A stretch of DNA of 64,000 nt from an uncultured Clostridia bacterium (GTDB lineage: Bacteria > Bacillota > Clostridia > TANB77 > CAG-508), in NCBI GenBank assembly GCA_944387445.1, contig CALXEX010000004.1:689-64688 (forward strand), in the 5' to 3' direction. Within the stretch, counting starts at the first letter, position 1, and every line of letters starts with the position of its first letter. A program made the position numbers and the translations under genes. This document shows positions 2,441 through 62,910 of this stretch, piece after piece. The notes beneath the pieces were generated by a model that made no database searches, was not told where the DNA came from, and worked only from the letters and a program-made list of their open reading frames with translations.

Positions 2441-3373
2441 GTGAGTAATATACATATTATGAAAAATGGCATCTATTTCCCTAAAAAGCAGATAGAAAAT
2501 GATCAACTAGAGAAAGCCTTGCATTTGGAAAATGGATATATTGAAAAAAGAACAGGAATCAGAAATAGATATTATGCAGTAAATGAAAACATAGAAGATA
2601 TGGCAGTAGAAGCTGTGAAAACACTTTTTCAATCAGAAAAAGAAAAGGAAGATATAGGTCTTATCATAACAGCAACTACAAGTACAGATATACTAATGCC
2701 AGGAATATCTAATTATGTGCAAAAAAAATTGGGACTTTCTCCATGCATATGTTTTGACATATTAGCTGGATGTGGTGGATATGTTAATGCATTTGACATT
2801 GCTAAAGTATATATGGATTCACAAAATATAAAAAAGGCAATGATTATTGGTGTAGATAAATTATCTGGGATTATTGATCAAAAGGATATAGGAACAGCTG
2901 TTGTTTTATCTGACGGTGCTGGAGCAACATTAATAGAGAAAGAAGATTGTGATTATAAAAAACTATATGTATCTCATATTCAAGCAGAAGAAGATAAAAA
3001 TGATATTTTAACATACCGATATGGAAAAAAATTATATATGAATGGAAAAGATGTATATAAATATGCAGTAACAAAAACAGTTGAGAACATAAAGGAACTA
3101 TTAGAAAAGGCTAATATTTCATTGGATGATGTAAAATATATAGTAGCACATCAATCAAATTTAAAAATTATGAAAGCAATTGCAGTAAGATTACAGATAG
3201 AAATGGAAAAAATGTATACAGATATAGAAGAAAGAGGTAATACGTTTTGTGCAAGTATACCGATTGCTTTGTATGATATGCAAAAAAGTGGATTGTTGAA
3301 ATCTGGCGATAAAATTATTTTATTAGGCTATGGTGGTGGATTGAACACAGGTAGTATTTTAATGGAAATATGA
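2441..3373 (+). CDS. fabH: 3-oxoacyl-ACP synthase III
   Basis: Active-site Cys context LAGCGGY, AHQSN and GNTFCASIP motifs. GTG start with AAGAGG upstream. Confidence 0.9.
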   Translation: MSNIHIMKNGIYFPKKQIENDQLEKALHLENGYIEKRTGIRNRYYAVNENIEDMAVEAVKTLFQSEKEKEDIGLIITATTSTDILMPGISNYVQKKLGLSPCICFDILAGCGGYVNAFDIAKVYMDSQNIKKAMIIGVDKLSGIIDQKDIGTAVVLSDGAGATLIEKEDCDYKKLYVSHIQAEEDKNDILTYRYGKKLYMNGKDVYKYAVTKTVENIKELLEKANISLDDVKYIVAHQSNLKIMKAIAVRLQIEMEKMYTDIEERGNTFCASIPIALYDMQKSGLLKSGDKIILLGYGGGLNTGSILMEI

Positions 3374-3420
3374 TAGAGCATAATTGCAATAAATTACATA
3401 AAAGAAAGGATGAAAAAAGA

Positions 3421-4356
3421 ATGAAAAGAGCATTTTTGTTTCCAGGACAAGGCGCACAAGTTGTAGGAATGGGAAAAGATATTTATGAAAAATATGATGA
3501 AGCTAAGAAGATTTATGATGAGGCTTCAAAAATTTCTGGAATTGATGTAAAAAAACTTTGTTTTGAAGGTCCAGAAGAAGAATTAAATAAAACAGAGAAC
3601 ACACAAATTGCTATCTTAACAACAAGTTTAGCAATATTAGAAGTGTTAAAATCAAAAGGAATAGAAGCAGATATTGCAACAGGATTAAGTTTAGGAGAAT
3701 ATGGTGCATTAATTTATGCAGGAATTATCAGTTTTGAAGATGGAATCAAGCTTATTCAAAAAAGAGGCTATTACATGGGAAATCTTCTACCTAATGAAAA
3801 ATTTTCTATGGCAGCCATTATTGGGTTAGATTCAGAAAAAATAGAAGAAGTTTGCAAAGAAATTGCTAAAGAGAATAAATTTATTGTTGTTGCTAACTAT
3901 AATTGTAGTGTACAAACCGTTATATCAGGACAAGAAGATGCAATTGATGAAGCAATGGAAGTGTTAAAAGCACAAGGTGCTAAAAGAGCAATAAAATTAA
4001 ATACAAGTGGACCATTCCACACCATAAAACTAGAAAAAGCAAAAGAAGCATATGAAAAAGAATTGGTAAATATTGATTTTCATCTTGATACAAAGGTTAA
4101 AGTTATAAAAAATATTGATGGTACATATTATACTGAAAATGACAATATAAAAGAAATTTTAGCAAATCATATTATTAGTCCAGTAAGATTTGATAAAGCA
4201 ATTCAATTAATGCAACAAGAACAAGTAGAAGAATATCTAGAAATTGGACCAGGAAGAACTTTAACAGGATTTGTAAAGAAAGACAACAGAGAGGCAAAAA
4301 CATATAATATCAATAATGTAGAAACTTTAGAAAAATATTTAGAAGAACAAGTATAA
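3421..4356 (+). CDS. fabD: malonyl-CoA:ACP transacylase
   Basis: FPGQGAQ and GLSLGEY (GxSxG) motifs. I prefer the internal ATG at 3421 (MKRAFLFPGQG) over the track start at 3370, which overlaps fabH. Confidence 0.9.
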   Translation: MKRAFLFPGQGAQVVGMGKDIYEKYDEAKKIYDEASKISGIDVKKLCFEGPEEELNKTENTQIAILTTSLAILEVLKSKGIEADIATGLSLGEYGALIYAGIISFEDGIKLIQKRGYYMGNLLPNEKFSMAAIIGLDSEKIEEVCKEIAKENKFIVVANYNCSVQTVISGQEDAIDEAMEVLKAQGAKRAIKLNTSGPFHTIKLEKAKEAYEKELVNIDFHLDTKVKVIKNIDGTYYTENDNIKEILANHIISPVRFDKAIQLMQQEQVEEYLEIGPGRTLTGFVKKDNREAKTYNINNVETLEKYLEEQV

Positions 4357-37416: not shown

Positions 37417-38175
37417 TTACGGTTCTTCAATCAAATCTTGCCAATACTTTTTAGGCATAAATTGCATTTGACATCTAGCATTTTTTCTTTCTTGTATGGC
37501 AATAGTTTTGAAAAACAATTTCCAAAGTTCTTGATATTTTTGTTCTTCTTCAGTAATATCAGGAATTATTAAATTAGTACTATCAATAATTTTGTATTCT
37601 TGTGTATTGTATAAAAAACAAATATTTCTATTTTTATCATGTATGATAAAGTTTTGTGTAGGTAGCCTTCTAATAAAGTGATGTCCTAAAGGTTCTATAA
37701 TATTATTATCAGGATGAATAGAAGCATAATATAGATTTTCTCCAATTTCCATAAAGCGAAGAAGACCTTTTAACTTATGACATTCTGATAAAGCCCTTTT
37801 TCTCATATTGATAACAGAAAAGACATAAGAAATTGTGAGCATGGTGTTGATTTTAGGACCAATGTCAAACCCATCACATAAATATTTTAGAATTTTGATT
37901 TCTTTTTCTTTTCCATCTGATAAAAAGGCATAAAAACTATTATATAAAGCTTCATAGCAAATATTTTTATTGATTCCTTCAAAAACACGTTTTGCTTTTT
38001 CGTAATTGGTATCTATATATTGTGTTTTATCTAAAAAATTTTGTGTATATTCCTCCTCTGAAACAATTTTTTGTGGTAATGTTTTATGAGAATAGCTCTC
38101 AAATACAATAGTTAATAATCCATCAAATGTACCATCATATAAATAGGTTTTATTTATAAGCTTCCAGTTAGACAT
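37417..38175 (-). CDS. DUF4130/TIGR03915-type putative DNA metabolism protein
   Basis: N-terminal YLYDGTFDGLLTIVFESY motif. Overlaps and follows the radical SAM partner gene. Confidence 0.75.
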   Translation of the reverse strand: MSNWKLINKTYLYDGTFDGLLTIVFESYSHKTLPQKIVSEEEYTQNFLDKTQYIDTNYEKAKRVFEGINKNICYEALYNSFYAFLSDGKEKEIKILKYLCDGFDIGPKINTMLTISYVFSVINMRKRALSECHKLKGLLRFMEIGENLYYASIHPDNNIIEPLGHHFIRRLPTQNFIIHDKNRNICFLYNTQEYKIIDSTNLIIPDITEEEQKYQELWKLFFKTIAIQERKNARCQMQFMPKKYWQDLIEEP

Positions 38176-39452
38176 TTTATTTTATCCTCCTTTGTAGGTA
38201 ACAATGTATCAAACATAGATAATTGTTCATATTTCTTTTGTGGTATGGTATTTCTTTCTGAATACAATAAATTGGTTTCAATAAAATTTTTATTAAATTT
38301 ATTGACTTCATAAAAATATTTTCCTTTACAAGTTATAAAATATTGTGCTCTTTTTAGGACAACTCCCAATTTTTTTAGACTTTCAAAGTCCAGTAAGAAT
38401 TCTCTTCTAGCAGTAATAATTTTCTTGGCGCTAATGACACCAATTCCAGGAATTCTAAGTAAAGTGTGATAATTGGCAGTATTGATTTCTATTGGAAATT
38501 TATCTAAATTTCTTAAAGCCCAATCACATTTTGGGTCTAATAAAGTATTAAAATTTGGATGTTCTTCATTTAATAATTCATCTGCTTGAAATCCATAAAA
38601 GCGAAGTAACCAATCTGCTTGATAAAGTCTATTTTCCCTCAAAAGAGGAGGCTTTTCCAAAGTAGGTAAGTTTTTATCATTATTAATAGAAACATAAGCA
38701 GAATAATAAACACGTTTTAACTTTAAAGATTTATACATTCCTTCAGAAAGTTTTAATATTTTTAAATCTGTTTCAGATGTAGCACCAACCATTAATTGTG
38801 TAGTTTGACCTGCTGGAACAAATTTCTTTTTATATTTGGATTTATCCATTTTATTTAATTTTAATGTATTGGAAATATAAGTCATTGGCTTTAAAATTCC
38901 GTCTTTTTCTTTTTGAGGTGCCAATAATTTTAAACTATCATTTGAAGGAAGTTCTATATTAATACTCATTCTATCTACTAAAATACCTAATTTATCAATT
39001 AATTCTTGACTACAACCGGGAATCGTTTTGCAGTGAATATATCCATTAAAATGATATTCATTTCTTAAAATAGATGCTGTTTCAACTAATTTTTCCATTG
39101 TATAATCAGGAGATTTAATAACTGCAGAACTTAAAAATAAACCTTCAATGTAATTTCGTTTATAAAAATGAATGGTTAAATCTGCAACTTCGCGAGGGGT
39201 AAAGGTAGCTCTAGGAACAGAATTGGAACAACGGTTAATACAATATTTACAATCATACATACAGGCATTTGTAAATAAAATTTTTAAAAGAGAAATGCAT
39301 CTACCATCTGCACCCCAACTGTGGCAAATGCCAGAAACATGACCATTTCCAATTCCATTATCTGTGTTTTTTCTGCTACTACCACTAGAACTGCAAGAAG
39401 CATCATATTTAGCAGAATCTGCAAGTATTTTCAATTTATCAAAAATGTCCAT
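38154..39452 (-). CDS. putative DNA modification/repair radical SAM protein (TIGR03916-type)
   Basis: CMYDCKYC (Cx3Cx2C) and a C-terminal helix-hairpin-helix, LLRIPGIGVISAKKIITAR. Always paired with the DUF4130 protein according to the family description. Confidence 0.8.
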   Translation of the reverse strand: MDIFDKLKILADSAKYDASCSSSGSSRKNTDNGIGNGHVSGICHSWGADGRCISLLKILFTNACMYDCKYCINRCSNSVPRATFTPREVADLTIHFYKRNYIEGLFLSSAVIKSPDYTMEKLVETASILRNEYHFNGYIHCKTIPGCSQELIDKLGILVDRMSINIELPSNDSLKLLAPQKEKDGILKPMTYISNTLKLNKMDKSKYKKKFVPAGQTTQLMVGATSETDLKILKLSEGMYKSLKLKRVYYSAYVSINNDKNLPTLEKPPLLRENRLYQADWLLRFYGFQADELLNEEHPNFNTLLDPKCDWALRNLDKFPIEINTANYHTLLRIPGIGVISAKKIITARREFLLDFESLKKLGVVLKRAQYFITCKGKYFYEVNKFNKNFIETNLLYSERNTIPQKKYEQLSMFDTLLPTKEDKIKCLTGSL

Positions 39453-39549
39453 AGCACACCTCCAAATATATGTTCGATTATATCATTCGAAAAATGAAAA
39501 TGCAATAGTTTTTAAAAACAAATTTTCGTATTTTTTAGCACTTATAAAC

Positions 39550-39578
39550 TTTACATAATTTTTAAGATATGATATAAT
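39550..39578 (+). promoter_or_regulatory. sigma-A-type promoter for the SSB-like genes
   Basis: TTTACA, 17 nt, then TGaTATAAT (extended -10). Confidence 0.55.
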
Positions 39579-39716
39579 AGTATTACTGTTTATGCAGAAT
39601 AAATAGAGAATTTATTTCTCAAAGAGAATATACTAGAATATAGTATATAAACAAAAGAGAAAATCTTCTATAAAAATGCATTAAACAAAAGAAAAAGAAT
39701 TAGGAGGAAAGAAAAA

Positions 39717-40355
39717 ATGAAAGAAACAAAAGAAACACGGATTGGAAGAGTAGAAAACAATGATGCCTTTATTATAGGTACCATTGAACAAAGCTTTGTA
39801 ACTGGAGAAATAGCTGGGGAAACATTCTATGCCACTAGAGTCTTAACAGAAAGGACAAGTGGTTATGAGGACAAAATTAATGTGCTTATCCCGGAAAAAA
39901 TCTTAAGTTCAAATATAACTGTAGGCAAAAAAATAAAAATAAAAGGAGAATTTCAATCAGAAAATATAAAAGATGATGATGGAAACTCACACCTTTTATT
40001 GTATTTTTTTGTAAAAGAGGTTGAAATTGCAAAGAAATTTGCAGTGGACAAAAACAATATATGTTTAAACGCATATATATGTAAACCTACAGTTTATCGA
40101 AAAACGCCATTGGGAAGAGAGATAACAGATATGATGGTAGCTGTACATCGGCCTGATGGTGAAAGTGATTATATTCCGTGTATCGCATGGAATATAACTG
40201 CAAGGCGATTATCCGGATTAAAACCTGGTGGTCGCATCAGAATTGTCGGGAGAATGCAAAGTAGAGAATACTTTAAAACACTCCCGAATGGAGACAAAGA
40301 AAAAAGGGTAGCCTATGAAGTCTCCATCAAAAGAGCATTTTTAGAAGAAATGTAA
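39717..40355 (+). CDS. double-OB-fold single-stranded-DNA-binding-like protein, paralog 1
   Basis: Two SSB-like halves. The second contains DYIPCIAW...GGRIRIVGRMQSREY...VAYEVSI, typical of SSB OB folds. No acidic C-terminal tip. Confidence 0.6.
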   Translation: MKETKETRIGRVENNDAFIIGTIEQSFVTGEIAGETFYATRVLTERTSGYEDKINVLIPEKILSSNITVGKKIKIKGEFQSENIKDDDGNSHLLLYFFVKEVEIAKKFAVDKNNICLNAYICKPTVYRKTPLGREITDMMVAVHRPDGESDYIPCIAWNITARRLSGLKPGGRIRIVGRMQSREYFKTLPNGDKEKRVAYEVSIKRAFLEEM

Positions 40356-40422
40356 GCAAAAGAAAAATCTTCTATTATCAAAACGCATTAAAACAAAAAA
40401 CAAAAAACAGGAGGAAAAGCAA

Positions 40423-41067
40423 ATGATGAAGAAAAAAAGACCATCACGGAGGGGAATGGCGAAAAACAATCAAGTAGTTATCGTAGGAAGGATTAAAGAA
40501 GAATTTTCCTTTGATCACAAATGGAAAGGAGAAGAGTTCTATGTAACAACGGTCGCCGTAAGGCGCGATAAAGACAGTGTGGACACAATTCCACTCATGA
40601 TAACGAAAAAAATGAAAGATGAAAAATTTTCTGGCAAAGAATATGTCAGAAAAAAGGTCGAAATAATAGGCCAATTCCGGTCTTACAACAAATGGGGAAA
40701 CGATAGAAAATCCCATTTGAAATTATTCTGCTTTGTCGAAAAAATTGACTTTGTCAATCTCGACGTAGATGATAAAAATGAAATTTTTTTGAGAGGATTT
40801 ATCTGTAAAAAACCAGTGTATCGAATAACTCCAAAATCAAAAAGTCCGATATCAGACCTTCTGATTGCAGTTAATCGAAAGCTGGGAAAATCAGATTATC
40901 TCCCATGCATTGCATGGGATGAAAATGCTGTAAGTGCAGGCATAATGGACGTCGGAGACTGCATAGAAATAACAGGCAGAATCCAGAGTAGAATGTATCC
41001 GAAAGATGGTGAATGGAAAGTGGCTTATGAGATTTCCATCATCAGAATGAAGAAAATAGAAGAATAA
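40423..41067 (+). CDS. double-OB-fold single-stranded-DNA-binding-like protein, paralog 2
   Basis: Alignable with paralog 1 (EEFYVTTV, SHLKLFCFV, SDYLPCIAW, GRIQSRMY, KVAYEISI). Confidence 0.6.
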   Translation: MMKKKRPSRRGMAKNNQVVIVGRIKEEFSFDHKWKGEEFYVTTVAVRRDKDSVDTIPLMITKKMKDEKFSGKEYVRKKVEIIGQFRSYNKWGNDRKSHLKLFCFVEKIDFVNLDVDDKNEIFLRGFICKKPVYRITPKSKSPISDLLIAVNRKLGKSDYLPCIAWDENAVSAGIMDVGDCIEITGRIQSRMYPKDGEWKVAYEISIIRMKKIEE

Positions 41068-41075
41068 GCTTGAGT

Positions 41076-41099
41076 GCAGAGAGACCGCAGGGTCTCTCT
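41076..41099 (+). terminator. G+C-rich hairpin after the second SSB-like gene
   Basis: cagagagacc-gcag-ggtctctctg. Only a weak T tract follows. Confidence 0.55.
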
Positions 41100-41152
41100 G
41101 TTAACATTTTAAGGAATTAAACCACAAATCTATAAAAATTTGTAAATGCATA

Positions 41153-41181
41153 TTGAAAAAATTGAAAGGAAACTATATAAT
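41153..41181 (+). promoter_or_regulatory. sigma-A-type promoter of the FtsZ-like gene
   Basis: TTGAAA, 17 nt, then TATAAT. Confidence 0.6.
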
Positions 41182-41231
41182 ACTAAGCGATACATAATAC
41201 AAAAGGAAATTAGAAAAGGAAGGTACAAAAA

Positions 41232-42221
41232 ATGATACAAATAGAAAACAAATATGGAAACAATTATGGAAATATATATGGAGAAATAAAAACATCGATT
41301 CCAAAAATAAAAGTTATTGGAATTGGTGGAGGTGGCAATAATGCCGTAAGACAAATGGTAGAAGATCAAGTAAAAGATGTTGAGTTTTATTTTATTAATA
41401 CAGAACTTGCCATGTTAAATAAAACAAAAATGGAAAATGTATTACAAATTGGAAAAGAAACGACAAAAGGATTAGGAGCAGGAGCAAACCCGGATATGGG
41501 TGAAAAGGCAGCAATCGAAAGCAAAGAAGATATCAAGAAATTATTAGAAGGAACACAATTATTATTCTTAACAGCAGGAATGGGAGGAGGAACTGGAACA
41601 GGAGCAATTCCAGTAGTTGCAGAAATTGCACAAGAAATGGGCATTCAAACAATTGCTATTGTCACAAAACCATTTCTTTTTGAAGGAAGATTGAGATCAA
41701 GTAGAGCAGATGTTGGAATTGAAAAATTAAAACAACATGTTAATAGTTTAATATTAATTTCAAATGATAAATTATTGAAATTGGCAGGAAGTCAAAAAAT
41801 GAGTGTCATTAATGCATTTAAAATGGCAGATAATGTATTAGAACAAGGAATCAAAAGTATTACAGATTTAATTACATCAGTGGGAGATATTAATGTTGAT
41901 TTTGCGGATATTACGACAATGCTAACATATAAAGGAATGGCATATATGGGAATTGGAGAAGCCAAAGGAGAAGGTAGAATGATAGATGCCGTTAACCAAG
42001 CTATTGATAATGCACTTACAGAAAACAAGATTGATAATGCAAAAGGTGTAATTTTTAATGTTAGAGGAAATTCAGAATTGGCATTAAGTGAAATAAATGA
42101 TGGTATTGGTAAAATTAATGACTTAATTAGTGAAGATGCCAATGTTGTATTTGGAACGATTACAGACGAATCTTTAGGAGACAAAGTTGTCGTTACTGTT
42201 ATTGCAACTGGTGTAGAATAG
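41232..42221 (+). CDS. FtsZ-family GTPase, globular core only (no C-terminal linker or tail)
   Basis: [10 protein letters not shown] (T1), [10 protein letters not shown] (tubulin signature), NDKLL and [19 protein letters not shown] (T7). The ORF ends at VIATGVE. Confidence 0.85.
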
Positions 42222-42316: not shown

Positions 42317-43829
42317 TTAATAAAACTCTTTCAATTTTCTATAAACTCCTTTTCTATCAAATACAATCATAAAAATCAAATAAAATAAGACAAACAAAGC
42401 AATTTGAATAATTGTACTTAAGTTGAAATTTGAAAAAGTGATAGGGAATAGTTTAATTAGTATATAAGATACTAGACAAGCTAGAATAGGTCTTACAATA
42501 AATTTTTTTAAATTCACAGAATAATTGATTTTTTTCTTTAATTGAATACTACTAATGGTAAAATTTAAAAGTTCACTCACGAAAATACTCAAAATATATC
42601 CATACATACCCATAATCGGAACAATAAAAAAGATAATCGAAATCGTAACTAATAAATCAATAATGTTACAAACCATGACACTTACTTGTTCATTAATACC
42701 TTTTAACATATTATCAATAATATTATCGATATACATAAAAAAGACAAGAGGCGCTAATATTTTTATCCATTTTCCTGCTTCTATGGATTGATAAACCATA
42801 AGACTAATTTCATTGGCAAATATAATAAAAACACCTGTCACACAAATAGAAAAAATAAAGGTAACTTTAAAAATTGTATCACAAACGGTTTTTAGTCTGT
42901 TATAATTTCCACCAGCAAGCAATCGCGAAAATTCTGGAACCAATAATCCACTAAAAGAACCAATAAGAACATTTGCAAACATAATTACAGGCATAACCAT
43001 TCCGACTAATTAAACCATAGTTAGAAACAGCTAAAGAATAAGAAATACCAGATAATTCTAGTCGAATGGGAATTAGAAATTGTTTTAAAGAAGAGAGCCC
43101 AGAACGGATGCAAGAAGTTATACTAATTGGAAAAGCAATGGTAAAAATTTTTTTCTTCATTTGTACTGGTAAACTTCTTTTTGATATGTATTTTTTTCGA
43201 TCAATCAAATAAAAGATGATGTTTAAAGTAAAAGAGAACACTTCAGAAATGACATCAGCTAGGATAAGAAAAATACATATGGATTCTACATCTTTTGAGG
43301 AATTAAAATATAGTAAACAAATAGTAGTGATAATTTTTATACTAGTTTCTAAAATTTGTGAAATTGCACTTTTATATGGTTTTTCAACAGAAGAAAAATA
43401 TCCTCCAATCACAGAAGAAACTGAAATGAGGGGTAAGCCAAGTGAAATTAGATAAAGTGGAATTTCAGAAACCATGTCTTTTAGCCAAATATCAGAAATG
43501 ATAGGTGCAAATAGAGCAACAAGAAGAGAAGAAAGAATACCTAATAATATGGCAAATAGGATGGAGGTTTTTACAGCCTTTATGCCATTGATATAATTTC
43601 CTTTTGCAAATTCTTCAGAAACGATACAAGTACAAGCAATGCCAATACCAGAAGTAGCAACTGTGATTGCAAAATTATATACAGACATAATTAAACTAAA
43701 GATACCAATTGCTTCAGAACCAACTTTATTAGCTACATATATATTAAAAATTAATCCAATACCGCGCATGCTAAGTGCAGTTATAGTTAAAATAATGCCA
43801 TTAATAAAAAATAATTTTGTTTTTCTCAA
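42317..43829 (-). pseudogene. SpoVB/MurJ-type (MOP superfamily) polysaccharide or lipid II flippase split by a frameshift
   Basis: The N-terminal ORF (MRGIGLIFNIYVANKVGSEAIGIF...) and C-terminal ORF (MVMPVIMFANVLIGSFSGLLVPEF...) overlap at 42951-43000 in frames 1 nt apart. The probable TTG start at 43829 follows AGGTGA. Confidence 0.75.
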
Positions 43830-43936
43830 ACATATCACCTTTTTAATGATATTAAGGAAAAACAAAATTTATGTCCCTTTTGGAATATTGGGACCAGGTC
43901 CATTTAGACCCAGGAACCATTTGGACCAATTGAACA

Positions 43937-56507: not shown

Positions 56508-58133
56508 ATGAACACACAAAGTATAGTAAGGTTAGGAGACTATATTCGGGCAGGATATCCGGCTATTGTTTTAAACACTCCTGAAGAAGAACGGGCTCTG
56601 GAAGAATGTTATAAAATAGCAGAAGGATTAGAACTGCAGTTTTATGCATGGTCTGAAACCAAGGGGGTTTTCAAATGTGAAAGAGATAAATGCGATGGAA
56701 ACCTTAAATATGAAACTGTAAAAGAGAGTGTAGCACCTGATGAAGAAGCTTTGAATGAGGGCTTAACGTATGGTAAAAACACCATATATTGTATGTTGGA
56801 TTTCCATCCATATATTAAAGCTCCAAATGTATGGAGAACAGCCAAAGATGTTTTTGCAAAAGCAAAAGGAAAAGGGACGAGTTACATTTTTATAAGTTGT
56901 AAATTTGATGTCCCGGCAGAACTGGAACATGAAGTAATCATAACGAGTTTAGACTTACCTCAAAAAAAAGAGTTACAAGAAATTGTAAATCAATTTTGTA
57001 AAATGTACGGAATTAGAGTTCCAGAAAATTTGGATGAAGTCTTAGATGCGGCCTTAGGTCTCACAATAGCAGAAGCTACGAATGCATATGCAACTTCACT
57101 GTCAAATACGGAAGGATTTGATGTAGACATTATAAACAATGTCAAAAGACAAATCATTTGTAAAGATGGCTTGTTGGAGTATATGCAGCCCAAAGAAACA
57201 ATGGAAACCGTGGGCGGAATGAAAAATTTTACAAGTTATGCGGAAAATCGGCTTTCTGCATATTCTGAAGAAGCAAGAGCTTATGGTTTACCTTATCCGA
57301 AGGGCGTACTACTTGTAGGAATTCCCGGATGTGGAAAAAGTTTGGCAGCTAAGGCACTTTCAAATATGTGGAAAAAACCTTTGCTGAAGCTGGATTTAGG
57401 AAAATTGTTTGGTTCTTTAGTAGGTGATACAGAAGCCAACACAAGAAAAGCCTTAGAAATAGCAGAAGCAATGGCACCGGCCATTTTATGGATAGATGAA
57501 ATCGAGAAAGGCCTCTCCGGAGTTGGAAGTAGCGGAAAGACAGATTCTGGTGTTACTTCTAGAATGTTTGGAACCATTCTTACATGGCTCCAGGAGAAAG
57601 AAACACCGGTCTATGTAATTGCCACTGCTAACAATATTTCTTCATTACCACCGGAGTTTTTGCGCAAAGGTAGGTTTGATGAAATCTTTTTTGTGGACTT
57701 ACCAAGTGGTGAAGAAAGAGAAGAAATCTTTGAAATTCAGTTGAAAAAGTATGGCAGAAAAAGTGAAGATTTTGATATTGCGGAATTAGCGAAGTTGTCT
57801 GAAGGATATACCGGAGCAGAAATTGAAGAAGCTATTGTTTCTGCAATGTTTAATGCATGGAATGATGGAAAAAGACCATTAACAACAGATGACATTAAAA
57901 CGGTGATGTCTGAAGAAATTAAGCCGATGTCTACAGGTATTATGAGTGGTACTGTTCAAGCATTAAGAGAATGGAGTTCCACTCATGGAATTAGAAGTGC
58001 TTCTTCTATTCCGAAAGTAAAGAAAGCGGCAACTTCAACAGGAAATATAAAAAGTACGAGACAAATAAGATTTAAAAAGCAGACTAATGGAAAAGCAGGC
58101 GGTACAGAGCAAACAAATAAGGAGGAATCATAA
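56508..58133 (+). CDS. AAA+ ATPase, classic clade, Ycf46-like architecture (unassigned N-domain of roughly 250 aa plus one AAA module and a basic tail)
   Basis: Walker A GIPGCGKS, Walker B ILWIDEIEK, sensor-1 ATANN, Arg-finger region RKGRFDE. Confidence 0.85.
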   Translation: MNTQSIVRLGDYIRAGYPAIVLNTPEEERALEECYKIAEGLELQFYAWSETKGVFKCERDKCDGNLKYETVKESVAPDEEALNEGLTYGKNTIYCMLDFHPYIKAPNVWRTAKDVFAKAKGKGTSYIFISCKFDVPAELEHEVIITSLDLPQKKELQEIVNQFCKMYGIRVPENLDEVLDAALGLTIAEATNAYATSLSNTEGFDVDIINNVKRQIICKDGLLEYMQPKETMETVGGMKNFTSYAENRLSAYSEEARAYGLPYPKGVLLVGIPGCGKSLAAKALSNMWKKPLLKLDLGKLFGSLVGDTEANTRKALEIAEAMAPAILWIDEIEKGLSGVGSSGKTDSGVTSRMFGTILTWLQEKETPVYVIATANNISSLPPEFLRKGRFDEIFFVDLPSGEEREEIFEIQLKKYGRKSEDFDIAELAKLSEGYTGAEIEEAIVSAMFNAWNDGKRPLTTDDIKTVMSEEIKPMSTGIMSGTVQALREWSSTHGIRSASSIPKVKKAATSTGNIKSTRQIRFKKQTNGKAGGTEQTNKEES

Positions 58134-58690
58134 TGAGTCACTTTTCAACAGTAAAAACGGAAATAACAGATTTGGAAGCTTTGGAGAAAGCAGTTTCTAG
58201 CATGGGGTTGAGATTGGAATCCAATACAACGTGCCGGTATTATTACGGAGCCGAATTCAAGGAACATGTTATAAAACTTCCTGGACGGTATGATGTTGCC
58301 GTGGAATCTAAAGGCAATGGTACCTATGATTTAAATGCCGATTTTTATGGAGGACATGTTGAAAAAGTCATTGGACCTAAAGGCGATGTACTTCTGAAAC
58401 AATATGCCATTGAAAAGTTGAAAATCGAAGCAAAAAAACATGGGTATAAGGTCTATGATAAAGGAAACGGAAGTTTAAAAATCATGGATCCGAAAACGAC
58501 CGGGAAGGCTGAAGTGACATGTTTACCTGATGGAAAGTTCGAAATAAAAACTTCAGGTTTCAAAGGCAAGTCTTGCATGAAGTTTGAAGCAATCGAAAAA
58601 GCCTTAGGATGTATTGACAGCACAAAGAAAACTGCTGAATACTATGCTGGTGATAATACGGCCAAAGCGCGTCTTACAGAATGGAGTTAA
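58133..58690 (+). CDS. DUF1257 (Ycf35-like) plus DUF2997-like fusion protein
   Basis: The N-terminus MSHFSTVKTEITDLEALEKA matches my memory of the DUF1257 start. The C-terminus GFKGKSCMKFEAIEKALG matches the DUF2997 core. The ATG overlaps the AAA+ stop (TAATG). Confidence 0.65.
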   Translation: MSHFSTVKTEITDLEALEKAVSSMGLRLESNTTCRYYYGAEFKEHVIKLPGRYDVAVESKGNGTYDLNADFYGGHVEKVIGPKGDVLLKQYAIEKLKIEAKKHGYKVYDKGNGSLKIMDPKTTGKAEVTCLPDGKFEIKTSGFKGKSCMKFEAIEKALGCIDSTKKTAEYYAGDNTAKARLTEWS

Positions 58691-58694
58691 TAGC

Positions 58695-60077
58695 ATGAAA
58701 AAAATAGCCATTATTATGTGTAATGATATGCATATGGACATAGAACGGTCCAATGTCTTACTAAATTACATTGTACAAAATGGTAATTATGAAATTGTCT
58801 GTGATTATACAATTGCAGATATTGTCATTATTCAAACTTGTGCTTTTGGAAATGGTAAAAGATATAGTATGCAAGTCATTGCAGATGTAAGAGTAAATGC
58901 CAATCCAAATGCCAAAATCATCGTAACGGGGTGTTTATTACCAATTAACAAAGAGGAATTAAAAGTGATTCCTGGAATAGAAGTAAAAAGCTTTGATGAA
59001 CTAATTCTTATGTTCAAAAAAGCAGATATACATCTATATCAGGAAATCGTTCCTCAAAATAAGGTGATTATCTCAGAAGGATGTTTAAAAAGATGTTCTT
59101 ATTGTGTATATCCCTTAATTGCTGGCAAATACACTAGTAAGCCAATGGGTGATATTTTGTCAGAAGTTGCAAGATTATATGAGACGGAAACAAATATCTA
59201 TTTAACAGGGGCACAAGAAACATCAGATTATGGCAGAGATTTATATGGCGAACCGAGTTTTGCGAAGTTGTTACAAAAAATTTGTACACAATTTCCGAAT
59301 TGTAACTATATCATTGGCTGGTTTCATCCGGCAGGGTTAACAGAAGAAATGATTTCTGTGATAGCACAAAATAAAAATATCATAGAAATTATGCTTCATA
59401 TCCAGCATGTGGATGAAACAATTCTTAAAAATATGAATCGACCCACAATGAAATTTACAGATGAGAAGATTCAGAAATTAAGAAAATTACGGCCAGATTT
59501 GGCTATTTCAACTGAAGTGATAGTTGGGTTTCCTAGAGAAACCCAACTGGAATTTCAAAAATTAGTGAAGTATTTAAGTAAAGGATATTTCACTGATATA
59601 GGAGTAGCAAGTTATGAACAGGTTTTGGGTACCGACGCTTCTGTGATGGAAAATCAAATTCCAGAAGGCATAAAAAAACAAAGACTACAATTCATCCAGA
59701 CGAAATTTAAAGCTTGTATTTATCCAGGCAATAAGGATAATTTTACGATGTCAGTTATTGAGGAATATATGAAAGCATATGATTTATTTTGTCAACTGCC
59801 TAAGTATATTTTGAATAACAGACAAAAATATAATTGTATTGCTGGGGTAGATACGAAGGCTAAAACGGAAGAGTTGGAAGAAATTTTAAAAGAAGTTCTG
59901 GAATATATTATAAATTCCAGAGGTGAATTTGATTTTCAAAAGAATAAAAAAATTCTAACTGAAAAATATACAGCAGATGCGAGAATGCTATTTTGTAGTA
60001 TGATAGAAAGAGGGAATTTCAAAGAAGGAATAAAGCAAAGAGCAAAAAAATTGTTATTAGATGACAACCAAGATTAA
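58695..60077 (+). CDS. methylthiotransferase-like radical SAM enzyme (MiaB/RimO family fold) without a recognisable TRAM domain
   Basis: MTTase N-domain Cys triad (IIMCND, QTCAF, TGCLL) and radical SAM CLKRCSYC. The ATG at 58695 is 8 nt after GGAG. The track start at 58614 overlaps the upstream gene. Confidence 0.75.
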   Translation: MKKIAIIMCNDMHMDIERSNVLLNYIVQNGNYEIVCDYTIADIVIIQTCAFGNGKRYSMQVIADVRVNANPNAKIIVTGCLLPINKEELKVIPGIEVKSFDELILMFKKADIHLYQEIVPQNKVIISEGCLKRCSYCVYPLIAGKYTSKPMGDILSEVARLYETETNIYLTGAQETSDYGRDLYGEPSFAKLLQKICTQFPNCNYIIGWFHPAGLTEEMISVIAQNKNIIEIMLHIQHVDETILKNMNRPTMKFTDEKIQKLRKLRPDLAISTEVIVGFPRETQLEFQKLVKYLSKGYFTDIGVASYEQVLGTDASVMENQIPEGIKKQRLQFIQTKFKACIYPGNKDNFTMSVIEEYMKAYDLFCQLPKYILNNRQKYNCIAGVDTKAKTEELEEILKEVLEYIINSRGEFDFQKNKKILTEKYTADARMLFCSMIERGNFKEGIKQRAKKLLLDDNQD

Positions 60078-60095
60078 ATTTATGAAAGGAGTAGT

Positions 60096-60758
60096 ATGAA
60101 AATTCAGCGTGTTATTCGTTTTAAAAGAGAGCCTTTAAATAAAGGTGATCCAAAAGAACGGGAAGAAGCTATCCGTGTAAATCACGATGCTTCAGAAAAT
60201 ATACAACAAGAAGAATGCAGACCATCTCCAAAATTAAAGCTTCCAAAAGAATTTAATGATGCAAATATGCAACTAAGAACATGTATCAGATTAGCTTTCG
60301 AAGAAAGAAACAAGGAAAATCTATTTGGAGTATTTGGACCCGATGCAGAAAGAATGATAAACGAATTAAAGAGAGATGTGATCGATAGACGTGATTGTAT
60401 TGTTAGCTTAACATATTCTTCAGAGTTTGGAAGTATAAAGAGTTATGAGGAATTATGTGACTATATTGCAAGAGGATTGCAACAGATGTCTGGAGAAGAA
60501 TTTATAGAAGGATACACATCTGAAAAAATCATTTCAGAGATTATAGATTTATACAAAATTGGGTTAGTTGATATGTGGAGTAGGCCACAAAAAGTTTTCA
60601 TTCTAATCAATTTCGAGATTATGAATCTTGAGATTTTGAGAAAACTTTCAAGTCTACAATCTTCAGATTTGATTATTCTTGTATGGTCTAACGAGACCAG
60701 AGATGGTATAGAAGATTTCTTCTATGATGGAAACTTTATTTTTGCAAATTTAACATAA
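60096..60758 (+). CDS. hypothetical protein, paralog A of the next gene
   Basis: AAAGGAG RBS. Shares MKI(Q/E)RVIRF, GVFG, L(R/K)(K/R)LS.LQSS(D/E)LII and GNFI blocks with the 60781 ORF. Confidence 0.6.
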   Translation: MKIQRVIRFKREPLNKGDPKEREEAIRVNHDASENIQQEECRPSPKLKLPKEFNDANMQLRTCIRLAFEERNKENLFGVFGPDAERMINELKRDVIDRRDCIVSLTYSSEFGSIKSYEELCDYIARGLQQMSGEEFIEGYTSEKIISEIIDLYKIGLVDMWSRPQKVFILINFEIMNLEILRKLSSLQSSDLIILVWSNETRDGIEDFFYDGNFIFANLT

Positions 60759-60780
60759 TATTTCAGAAAGGAAAAAAAGT

Positions 60781-61599
60781 ATGAAAATTGAGCGTGTTAT
60801 TCGGTTTCAAAAACCTCAAAATACAGAGGATGTTAATGAAGCCGTCAGAAAAGTAGAAAGCACAGGCATTGGTTTTCGGACTTTAGAAGATGTGCAATCA
60901 AGAGGTGGCATACCTGATGGAGAATTTCATTCCCAAGTAGTGATGGAAAAATCAGGCCCGAGTGCTTTTGACCAGTTAAAACGGAGAATGGAAATTGTTT
61001 TGGCTGGGAGAGCTTCCAATATGATTGGCGTTTTTGGGATAAATGCAGACAATGTGATTGGACAAATGATGAAAGATCCGATTTTCCAGAATGTTAATTT
61101 TTTGGGTAAAATAGAACAATCGCCTGGAAGTGATATTTATAATTATATTGCAGCAATTTTAATGGACTATCTTAACCAAAAAGTAGGTGGAAGGCGTGAT
61201 TTGGAGTATGAAAGGAGAGAGGCTTTTAGAACAATTGAAACTATTTATGATTCTCATGAAACTCATGGTACAGCATTAGATGTTTTACATCAGACTGCAA
61301 TGAAAGCCAAAAGGGATAGTTATATTTTAACTGCCCTCAATCAAATTAATAGAATAGATAATTATGTATCTTATTCAAGAGAAAGAGAGTATAAATTTCT
61401 GTTAATTGTGGAATTACAAAAAGTGGATTATGTGACACTTAAAAGGCTTTCAAATTTGCAATCCTCAGAGTTAATTATCATTACATATTCTTTATTTAAA
61501 TTAGAATATGCGCTGGATAGTGAAACAATGGGGAGCATAGGAGGTAATAATATCATAGGAAAGTTTTTCCCTGCTGGTAACTTTATTATGGCAGATTGA
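60781..61599 (+). CDS. hypothetical protein, paralog B
   Basis: Same conserved blocks as paralog A. 272 aa. Confidence 0.6.
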   Translation: MKIERVIRFQKPQNTEDVNEAVRKVESTGIGFRTLEDVQSRGGIPDGEFHSQVVMEKSGPSAFDQLKRRMEIVLAGRASNMIGVFGINADNVIGQMMKDPIFQNVNFLGKIEQSPGSDIYNYIAAILMDYLNQKVGGRRDLEYERREAFRTIETIYDSHETHGTALDVLHQTAMKAKRDSYILTALNQINRIDNYVSYSREREYKFLLIVELQKVDYVTLKRLSNLQSSELIIITYSLFKLEYALDSETMGSIGGNNIIGKFFPAGNFIMAD

Positions 61600-61620
61600 T
61601 AAAGATAGGAGGGATTTACA

Positions 61621-62910
61621 ATGATTTATATTGACCTTGATGAACATAAGATTTACCGTAAGTCTTATCAGGATTCTGATAGTGCTTCTTATTCAGGAAC
61701 TGGTTTCTTTCTAGAATCTGCAAAACTAATTATTGATAAAATGTTCGAAGAATATTTCATGGAATTTTATCAAGAAAACGCCATGAAGTCACAGATGACT
61801 GAAATCTGGAAACAAATATCAATAAACATTCCTGAGGAAACAGTATTTGTGGTAAAAAATGCACAACAGTATTATTTAACTGAAGATTTGCATTTTGAAA
61901 CTATACCAGAAGTATTTTTTGAAATTAGTAATACTGCCCACATTGTTTTGGCAGAATGTTTTGAGACATGCTATTCAAGATTTACTGACTGGATGGGAAA
62001 CTATAAAGACTGGAAACAGAAAGAAATCAACTTGCCTACTATATATATAAGTGAAAGAAAGCATCCAGACGTAGGAGGAGTAGAAGGCTTCTTTGAGGAT
62101 GAAAAAGTAAGGTTTGAGCGTATTTTAAATGTCTCTTTGAAGCCAAAAATGATTGATTCTGTAAGCCCAAAGATTATGGAACTCTATAGAAGTGAAATCT
62201 TGGATAACGAACCAATTATGCTTATCATTAAAACGGATGGGGACACTAGAGAAATCTATAGTGTTTCGAACGAATTAATGGTTAAAAAAGTTCAGTATCT
62301 TCATATGGAAAGGCAATTACAGGAAATCATTAGTAGACATGTGCCAGTAGACTCTGATTTTCTGGCAAATAGGCTGTATAATTATATTTGGATGCCGTCA
62401 AAGTGGATAAAGCCATATATCAGAATAGAAACAGTTAATAAGAATGGCATAAATGCTACATTATTTATAACTGATAGGCAAATTCCTATTGTTTCCGATT
62501 TAGAGTTTAAGAAAGTTTATACATTTGCATTGATTGAACATAATGCAAATGTATATCCAAATTCTCCCTATAGTATGTGTGGAGATTTTATCAGTATTCA
62601 ACCGGTTTCTCCTGAAGAGGGATTACGGGAGATGCAAGAAATGAATGAAACGATGTTTCAGGATATGACTTGTTATGTAGAATATGTAGGGAAAAAATAT
62701 AGGATTCATGGAATGGATCCCGATACTTGTAAAGAGGGAACATGGGATGAGGAAGATAGTTTGGTGTATGAACTGAAACAAGGCGAGTTGAGTTTGATGG
62801 AAAGCTTGACTCTTGAGGCTATAAAGGATGGTTGGTCTAGGATAAAAGAGGTGGCTAGAAAAGCACGAAAAGAAGGCGTCTATGCATTCTTCAAAGTTGA
62901 ATTTTTCTAA
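61621..62910 (+). CDS. hypothetical 429-aa protein
   Basis: TAGGAGGG RBS. No recognisable domain. Last gene before the terminator. Confidence 0.6.
   Translation: MIYIDLDEHKIYRKSYQDSDSASYSGTGFFLESAKLIIDKMFEEYFMEFYQENAMKSQMTEIWKQISINIPEETVFVVKNAQQYYLTEDLHFETIPEVFFEISNTAHIVLAECFETCYSRFTDWMGNYKDWKQKEINLPTIYISERKHPDVGGVEGFFEDEKVRFERILNVSLKPKMIDSVSPKIMELYRSEILDNEPIMLIIKTDGDTREIYSVSNELMVKKVQYLHMERQLQEIISRHVPVDSDFLANRLYNYIWMPSKWIKPYIRIETVNKNGINATLFITDRQIPIVSDLEFKKVYTFALIEHNANVYPNSPYSMCGDFISIQPVSPEEGLREMQEMNETMFQDMTCYVEYVGKKYRIHGMDPDTCKEGTWDEEDSLVYELKQGELSLMESLTLEAIKDGWSRIKEVARKARKEGVYAFFKVEFF

Follow-up and report, generated by a model that had tools for sequence, protein, structure and literature searches.

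A variable cassette for two-OB-fold SSB-like proteins with a conserved folded 5′ leader in gut Clostridia

The window analysed here is a 64-kb stretch of DNA from an uncultured chicken-gut Clostridia genus. Its plus strand carries two adjacent genes, g1 and g2, each coding for a protein with two oligonucleotide/oligosaccharide-binding (OB) folds of the kind found in single-stranded DNA (ssDNA)-binding proteins (SSBs). A promoter and a 5′ untranslated region (5′ UTR), leader 1, precede g1, and a shorter segment, leader 2, lies upstream of g2 (Table 1). The unit to which these elements belong is a cassette composed of a self-contained strong promoter, a structured 5′ UTR of ~135 nt, a gene and a terminator, and it is found in a variable slot bordered by a radical SAM gene and an ftsZ-like gene. 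The gene pair and two sequence blocks shared by its leaders had been noticed in a preliminary description of this DNA, whose claims are taken up below.

Table 1. Features of the g1-g2 locus and of its borders (window coordinates).
Feature	Position	Strand	Remarks
g1	39717-40355	+	212 aa, two-OB SSB-like, g1-type lineage
g2	40423-41067	+	214 aa, two-OB SSB-like, g2-type lineage
Promoter TTTACA-17-TATAAT	39550-39578	+	TG extension (TGATATAAT at 39570-39578); 11/12 consensus matches
Leader 1 (full ~135-nt structured 5′ UTR)	39579-39716	+	covariance-model match 39579-39728, 127.8 bits
P1 5′ strand TGTTTATGCA	39587-39596	+	genus-invariant, ~9 nt past −10
Hairpin HP1, GAGAA/UUUCU	39606-39620	+	pair 30-44 alternates G-C / A-U
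Hairpin HP2, ATATACTA / TAGTATAT, 8-bp	39628-39648	+	loop length 5-10 nt among leaders
Block 1 AAAATCTTCTAT	39660-39671	+	conserved pyrimidine-rich segment in junction
P1 3′ strand TGCATTAAACA	39677-39687	+	includes block 2 (39678-39685)
Block 2 GCATTAAA	39678-39685 and 40385-40392	+	part of P1 3′ strand in leader 1
Shine-Dalgarno AGGAGGA of g1	39702-39708	+	A-rich stretch, probability unpaired 0.99
Leader 2 (ATGTAAGCAAAAGA..)	40350-40422	+	3′ 73 nt of g2-type leader; block 1 at 40364-40375, block 2 at 40385-40392
Shine-Dalgarno AGGAGGA of g2, in leader 2	40409-40415	+	
Terminator-like hairpin GCAGAGAGACC-GCAG-GGTCTCTCTG then TTAACATTTT	41076-41110	+	−21.8 kcal/mol; g2-type terminator
Radical SAM protein TIGR03916, left slot border	38154-39452	−	657.9 bits
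DUF4130/TIGR03915 gene, next in radical-SAM operon	37417-38175	−	
FtsZ-like gene, right slot border	41232-42221	+	329 aa, own promoter 41153-41181

The products of g1 and g2 are two-OB-fold SSB-like proteins of the PRK05813 (EndoTT/TtePriB) family. Against NF004476/PRK05813, a whole-protein hidden Markov model of NCBIfam with a curated cutoff of 171 bits, g1 scores 183.6 bits and g2 scores 193 bits. They align with each other over their full length at 40% identity (E-value 1e-43), in line with the earlier statement that they are related yet diverged. The match to Pfam SSB is confined to the C-terminal half in each of them, and PDB entry 4gs3 aligns with the N-terminal half of g1 (E-value 6e-6). 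Two beta-barrels are present in the AlphaFold2 model of g2, built on a 90-sequence alignment (predicted local distance difference score pLDDT 91.6; predicted template modelling score pTM 0.85), and Foldseek aligns it best over its full length with two-OB SSBs from Thermus and Deinococcus (TM-score 0.71-0.76). The absence of an acidic C-terminal tip was also correctly noted: the chains have neither a disordered linker nor a DDDIPF-type tip and their ends (…EEM in g1, …IEE in g2) directly follow the last strand. This organization, with two OB folds, is not that of the canonical SsbA type (single OB, linker, acidic partner-binding tip), and the score against the canonical SSB model TIGR00621 is 17.8 bits versus a cutoff of 53.95. 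The name PriB finds no support in model TIGR04418, which gives 13.9 bits for g1, far under its cutoff of 72, and does not have g2 among its matches. The PADLOC defence-system protein models yielded zero matches for g1 or g2. The nuclease activity of EndoTT depends on G170, R172 and G177 (PMC2887958). These positions read G, R, G in g1 of the tandem lineage, G, C, G in all g2-type proteins and G, Y, G in the alleles found at loci with g1 only; in the 90-sequence family alignment the R172 position is H in 37, R in 26 and C in 15 sequences. That g1 keeps the EndoTT triad while g2 does not hints at split roles.

Leader 1 is predicted to fold with a minimum free energy of −22.2 kcal/mol (z-score −4.4) into an architecture whose three helices, P1, HP1 and HP2, are backed by RNAalifold and by pair counts. 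P1 pairs UGUUUAUGCA with UGCAU-U-AAACA, the latter containing block 2, and encloses HP1, HP2 and a small third stem; the junctions are unpaired and conserved. For block 1, kept as AAUUCUUCUA in the outgroup locus L286, the possible partners are AUAGAGAAU and the Shine-Dalgarno sequence, neither pairing being established. A long-range helix P2 of AUAGAGAAU with block 1 was discarded, as 87% of its cells are paired versus 98% for the local HP1. A switch between two closing helices in the leaders is possible in the modelled folds. In the L286 leader (1286-1437) the P1 5′ strand gives −11.3 kcal/mol with a UAAACA sequence found after HP2 and −8.8 with its P1 partner. A terminator scan found no intrinsic terminator inside the leader, and the Rfam covariance models, run on positions 39000-41600 with E-values up to 5, gave no relevant match to it.

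The identical blocks occur in the two leaders in the same order and ahead of AGGAGGA, as first reported. An exact shared 12-mer is in itself only modestly unlikely by chance, being reached in 55 of 2000 mononucleotide shuffles of the A-rich leader stretches. When the covariance model of the leader was run on the window, leader 2 was the sole other match (32.7 bits, E-value ~1e-3), the next one scoring 19.9 bits. Comparison with relatives (loci designated L followed by a number) bore out the conservation of the leader in related loci. A leader of ~135 nt follows the same promoter at every cassette-bearing relative, and empty slots have neither promoter nor leader. The leader therefore belongs to the cassette, and its explanation as a mere conserved flank is ruled out. 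It is far more conserved than the synonymous sites of the downstream genes: identity is 0.94-1.00 among g1-type loci versus a proportion of synonymous differences (pS) of 0.02-0.31 in the gene behind it, 0.78-0.94 versus 0.39-0.67 among g2-type loci, and 0.72-0.79 between the two types, for which pS is saturated. At least two further copies, in L286 and L324, were among the matches listed by a covariance-model search of genome contigs, alongside Lachnospiraceae homologs of the family; they lie directly upstream of family members 42-45% identical, in two very different neighbourhoods. The unpaired AAACAAAAGA, AAUUCUUCUAU and CAGAAU are nearly invariant across lineages with 40% identical proteins. 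Among the matches listed for a 14-mer of the invariant leader start in genome contigs there were chance matches alone, a longer leader pattern had one true instance in metagenome contigs, equal to the L024 sequence, and a pattern search of viral contigs had 34 matches, all due to chance and none of them passing the leader model.

Pair changes among the leaders fit the predicted helices. In nine leaders 97.6% of the cells are paired versus at most 57% for slid partners, and three pairs vary on both sides. In a 12-sequence alignment, which leans towards the structure because it was fitted to the model, 8 of the 23 pairs vary on both sides, four of them in P1, a result equalled by one of 500 shuffles. 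In HP2, two-sided changes affect three pairs in this alignment and two among the nine leaders. Where P1 varies on one side only, the change is compatible with a G.U pair, which fits an RNA read from this strand. The leader is a candidate regulatory RNA, a conserved folded mRNA element absent from RNA databases.

The region between g1 and g2 has another history. At loci with g1 only, the gene ends by ..GAAGAG TAA (..EE*) and has its own terminator, whereas g1 in the window and in L010 ends by ..GAAGAA ATG TAA GCAAAAGA... In the g2-type leader the 3′ arm of HP2 ends with ATGTAA(A/G)CAAAAGA. Judged from this junction, leader 2 consists of the 3′-terminal 73 nt of a g2-type leader joined to the g1 3′ end, and the last codon of g1 (ATG) and its stop (TAA) are supplied by the fused leader, for which reason the tandem is read as the derived state. 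The shared blocks are then inherited pieces of one leader, since leader 2 is the remnant of a fused g2-type leader. The claim that they mark selection on a cis-acting RNA accordingly stands for the conserved structured 5′ UTR, while for leader 2 the likeness comes from common descent by fusion. No terminator was found between g1 and g2, and they are therefore probably co-transcribed. Transcription is supported, at low depth, by chicken-gut metatranscriptome contigs, in which g1-type sequence alone is seen. The terminator-like hairpin downstream of g2 was not picked up by a simple terminator scan; the same element is present behind the g2-type genes of L013, L014 and L018.

A survey anchored on the radical-SAM gene covered the slot in 80 species. 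The radical-SAM protein is 91-99% identical among same-genus loci, and 96-99% in sister species with filled and with empty slots alike; the FtsZ-like protein is 91-98% identical across the genus, which indicates strong constraint. L020, L028, L031, L032 and L040 have an empty slot of 198 bp. The slot holds a g1-type gene alone in L021, L025, L029 and L004-9, a g2-type gene alone in L022, L024, L084, L090, L013, L014 and L240, and both genes in the window and in L010-12. A deletion scar, with the promoter joined straight to the terminator tail, is seen in L033 (4728-5001). Other cargo is also found. L023 (3989-5001) and L030 (4148-5001) carry a gene for a PBECR3 nuclease of 121-124 aa (PF18812, E-value 4e-22) and, behind it, a skipping-rope RNA (RF02924, 44 bits versus a gathering score of 36.7), and remnants of this pair are left in L026 and L061. 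The skipping-rope RNA was shown in a recent preprint to be a tRNA mimic; next to a BECR-fold RNase, it resembles a decoy or antitoxin RNA that accompanies a toxin. The slot of L034 (3285-5001) has genes for a patatin-like phospholipase and an acyltransferase, and in that of L035 (4535-5001) lies an element of ~270 bp that bears long inverted repeats.

The divergent neighbours are the repair-operon genes named in the preliminary description, with TIGR03916 and TIGR03915 confirmed by profile. The operon is kept beside an empty slot in many sister species, which rules out a functional tie, and in other Clostridia the family gene is found elsewhere, alone amid housekeeping genes. Adjacency to the repair operon is therefore no functional link. 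On the minus strand, just past the −10 (TGATATAAT) of the radical-SAM gene, inspection by eye revealed CGAACATATATTTG (39462-39475), which resembles the Gram-positive LexA (Cheo) box; relatives have CAAACATATATTCG or CGTACATATGTTTG at the corresponding place. The FtsZ-like protein has GTPase and FtsZ_C domains, without linker and without C-terminal peptide. A chicken-gut RNA-seq contig (run X28) joins 39530 to 41151, skipping 1620 bases and carrying 76 other letters between; it connects the radical-SAM and ftsZ sides and stems from an empty-slot relative in the same kind of sample. Further right, a MatE/MurJ-like flippase (42317-43865, minus strand) is split into two overlapping open reading frames in the window, L007-9 and L014 and is a single frame of 503 aa in L004 and L018.

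The cassette genes evolve fast between constrained flanks. The flanking genes differ from those of sister species by ~0.01 non-synonymous (dN) and 0.27-0.69 synonymous (dS) substitutions per site (dN/dS ratio ω 0.02-0.05). The cassette genes have ω values of 0.2-0.65, about 10 times those of the flanks, with dN up to 0.42. The dS of g2-type genes exceeds that of the flanks and the g1 alleles are mosaics. In the tree, g1-type and g2-type genes form two separate long-stemmed clades: they are two deep cassette lineages present singly in the same slot of sister species. The description of g1 and g2 as tandem paralogs is right in that they are adjacent relatives, yet the pair was not born here, the tree and the leader junction ruling out a recent duplication in place. 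The reported G+C richness of g2 relative to its surroundings (0.366 versus 0.289 for the window) is confirmed. Its G+C content at third codon positions (GC3) is 0.36, when most window genes have 0.10-0.19; g1 is raised too (0.25) and the whole set of cassette genes ranges from 0.22 to 0.36 versus about 0.16. Either foreign origin or high expression fits these values. The sole other compositional outlier of the window is a five-gene block at 56508-62910 (GC3 0.23-0.31 versus about 0.16).

Relatives of the two proteins are encoded by phages. The phrog_26861 SSBs of Enterocloster phage PMBT24, Dulem virus 39 and gut prophages are 35-48% identical to them, and their genes lie beside those for primase, RecJ-like exonuclease, Pol III alpha, ERF or RecT. 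This placement in replication and recombination modules supports a true role in ssDNA handling. No leader of this kind was found upstream of the phrog_26861 genes and no phage genes surround the cassettes of the window. In locus L238 the early region of a prophage includes, at 3001-3624, the gene for a family member of 207 aa that shares 47-48% identity with g1 as well as with g2; upstream of it are genes for a cI-like repressor and a KilAC antirepressor, and downstream is one for an ERF recombinase.

These data can be assembled in a single account, in which the leader would act at the level of the mRNA. Abundant ssDNA/RNA-binding products would bind the unstructured A-rich stretch of the ribosome site beside the folded domain and limit their own translation in the manner of T4 gp32, and P1, at the extreme 5′ end, may add transcript stability. 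The tandem arose by fusion of a g1-type 3′ end with the final 73 nt of a g2-type leader. Some of this control may persist for g2, given that leader 2 still has the unstructured part and the ribosome site. We give the account as a whole (family, cassette, leader, fusion and feedback) a probability of about 0.6. The family, the fold, the cassette behaviour, the conservation and helices of the leader and the fusion are held with high confidence; feedback on translation by the genes' own products through the leader, proposed by analogy, is tentative and rather unlikely when taken by itself.

Several observations weigh against this account. The covariation comes from 12 sequences of ~4 lineages in a model-fitted alignment. 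Single-sequence folds of the L286 and L324 leaders do not give P1, whose 5′ strand has the alternative partner UAAACA, weaker in all the other leaders and stronger in L286. The start site and the regulation of the leader are predicted. The putative operator is purine-rich, and SSBs usually favour pyrimidine-rich strands. Leader 2, finally, folds no better than shuffled sequence (z-score −1.1), and the 10% by which it differs between the window and L010 equals or exceeds the neutral expectation, so it may be a passive relic. According to that explanation the blocks of leader 2 persist as the junction is young, and the ribosome site alone is functional. Compatible with a functional leader 1, it comes closest of all rivals to even odds. 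Leader 2 has no P1 5′ strand, HP1 or HP2, its differences include an indel between the blocks, and the tandem is limited to one shallow lineage (dS between the window and L010 of 0.14 for g1 and 0.27 for g2). Yet both blocks are intact though the spacer between them changed, and the last codons of g1 provide block 1 with a new 7-bp partner. This comparison rests on two independent tandem sequences.

Leader 1 could also serve as a 5′ stabiliser or translation enhancer devoid of feedback, a somewhat less probable reading than autoregulation. A helix at the 5′ end is known to protect Bacillus leaders from 5′ exonuclease, and P1, which starts ~9 nt past the −10, would block this activity; the A-rich stretch would aid initiation. 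The constitutively open Shine-Dalgarno sequence in the predicted ensembles, the absence of an intrinsic terminator in the leader and the combination of strong promoter and ribosome site agree with it, and the raised GC3 is compatible with high expression. Such a function needs structure rather than sequence, however, and does not account for the near-invariance of the unpaired AAACAAAAGA, AAUUCUUCUAU and CAGAAU.

The tandem itself might instead be an old duplication in place, single and empty slots resulting from later losses, for instance of g1 by recombination between leaders. Both lineages do share leader and slot, direct repeats of ~65 nt could delete g1 and the L033 scar shows that deletions occur. 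The idea is nevertheless improbable: g1-only loci have their own stop, ..EE* C-terminus and terminator that tandem loci lack, the last codon and stop of g1 in tandem loci are leader sequence, and to the right of the gene, g1-only loci are more like the empty site than like g2-type loci. Still harder to sustain is the view of the blocks as DNA operators for a transcription factor, such as a damage-response repressor common to the divergent repair operon. It draws on the overlap of the invariant ACTGTTTATGCAGAAT with the expected start site, on HP2 being a palindrome in DNA and on the Cheo-box-like sequence seen by eye in the radical-SAM promoter; but the one-sided P1 changes, G.U in the RNA, would read C.A in DNA or on the opposite strand, HP2 combines a covarying stem with a loop of variable length (5 to 10 nt), 90 nt separate the two strands of P1 and the leader moves with the gene to other loci. 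Least probable is a ligand-sensing riboswitch, as the multi-stem junction closed by P1, its conserved unpaired segments and the alternative pairings of the P1 5′ strand and block 1 might suggest, given the variable length of the P1-to-Shine-Dalgarno spacer, atypical of an expression platform, the ribosome site free in every predicted state, the lack of terminator and of any Rfam match, and the absence of an obvious metabolite logic for an SSB-like gene.

With autoregulation as a tentative proposal, a wider reading would make the leader a new RNA-operator class by which two-OB SSB-like proteins set their own level in AT-rich gut Clostridia, the cassettes being conflict genes that diversify under phages carrying the same SSB family. 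We regard it as doubtful; it is motivated by the pattern of presence and absence, by the depth of the allelic lineages, by mosaics within genes and by the hotspot shared with the BECR-nuclease and tRNA-mimic module. On this reading the products of the tandem, of which g1 alone keeps the EndoTT triad, may differ in role or assemble into a heteromer. PRK05813 has thousands of members in Clostridia and phages, and the literature found on it amounts to a single biochemical study, on EndoTT, and a single half-structure, 4GS3. The locus provides this family with a candidate regulatory RNA that has clear helices, and in at least one genus its gene is a swappable, fast-evolving cassette and not a housekeeping gene. 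The fusion junction offers a small worked case of an operon built from two alleles of one locus. If the leader is truly an autoregulatory operator, it would be a bacterial counterpart of the T4 gp32 circuit.

The closest characterized protein is EndoTT, or TtePriB (Tte0829), of Thermoanaerobacter (Caldanaerobacter) tengcongensis, a two-OB member of PRK05813 that binds ssDNA (PMC2887958, PMC12614216). It is the founding studied member of the family and an ssDNA endonuclease in vitro (PMC2887958), and 4GS3 is the N-terminal OB domain of this T. tengcongensis “PriB” (PMC4129139, PMC12614216). Like g1 and g2 it belongs to the same model family, with ~215 aa, two OB folds and no C-terminal tail, and its 170-184 segment (G-x-R-I-R-x-x-G-R-x-Q-S-R-E-Y) is nearly identical in g1 (PMC2887958). 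Unlike them it is the product of a single gene in a thermophile, for which no such leader has been reported. The phrog_26861 phage SSBs share the two-OB family with g1 and g2 and differ from the window cassettes in the extent of identity and in having no such leader. SSBs of the Deinococcus-Thermus group are the main SSB of their cell and have a flexible linker and an acidic C-terminal tip, unlike g1 and g2, whose chain stops right after the last strand. These SSBs (DrSSB 1SE8/3UDG; Taq/Tth 2FXQ, 2IHF, 2CWA) resemble g2 in carrying two SSB-type OB folds per chain, the structural match extending over ~210-225 columns at 15-18% identity only. For regulation, the comparison is with T4 gene 32, whose SSB represses its own translation via an operator (PMC535899, PMC3014915). 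Leader 1 has no sequence relation to that operator and forms a multi-helix junction in place of a pseudoknot; the likeness is in layout alone, that is, a folded 5′ element, then an unstructured A-rich stretch with the ribosome site, then an SSB-type gene.

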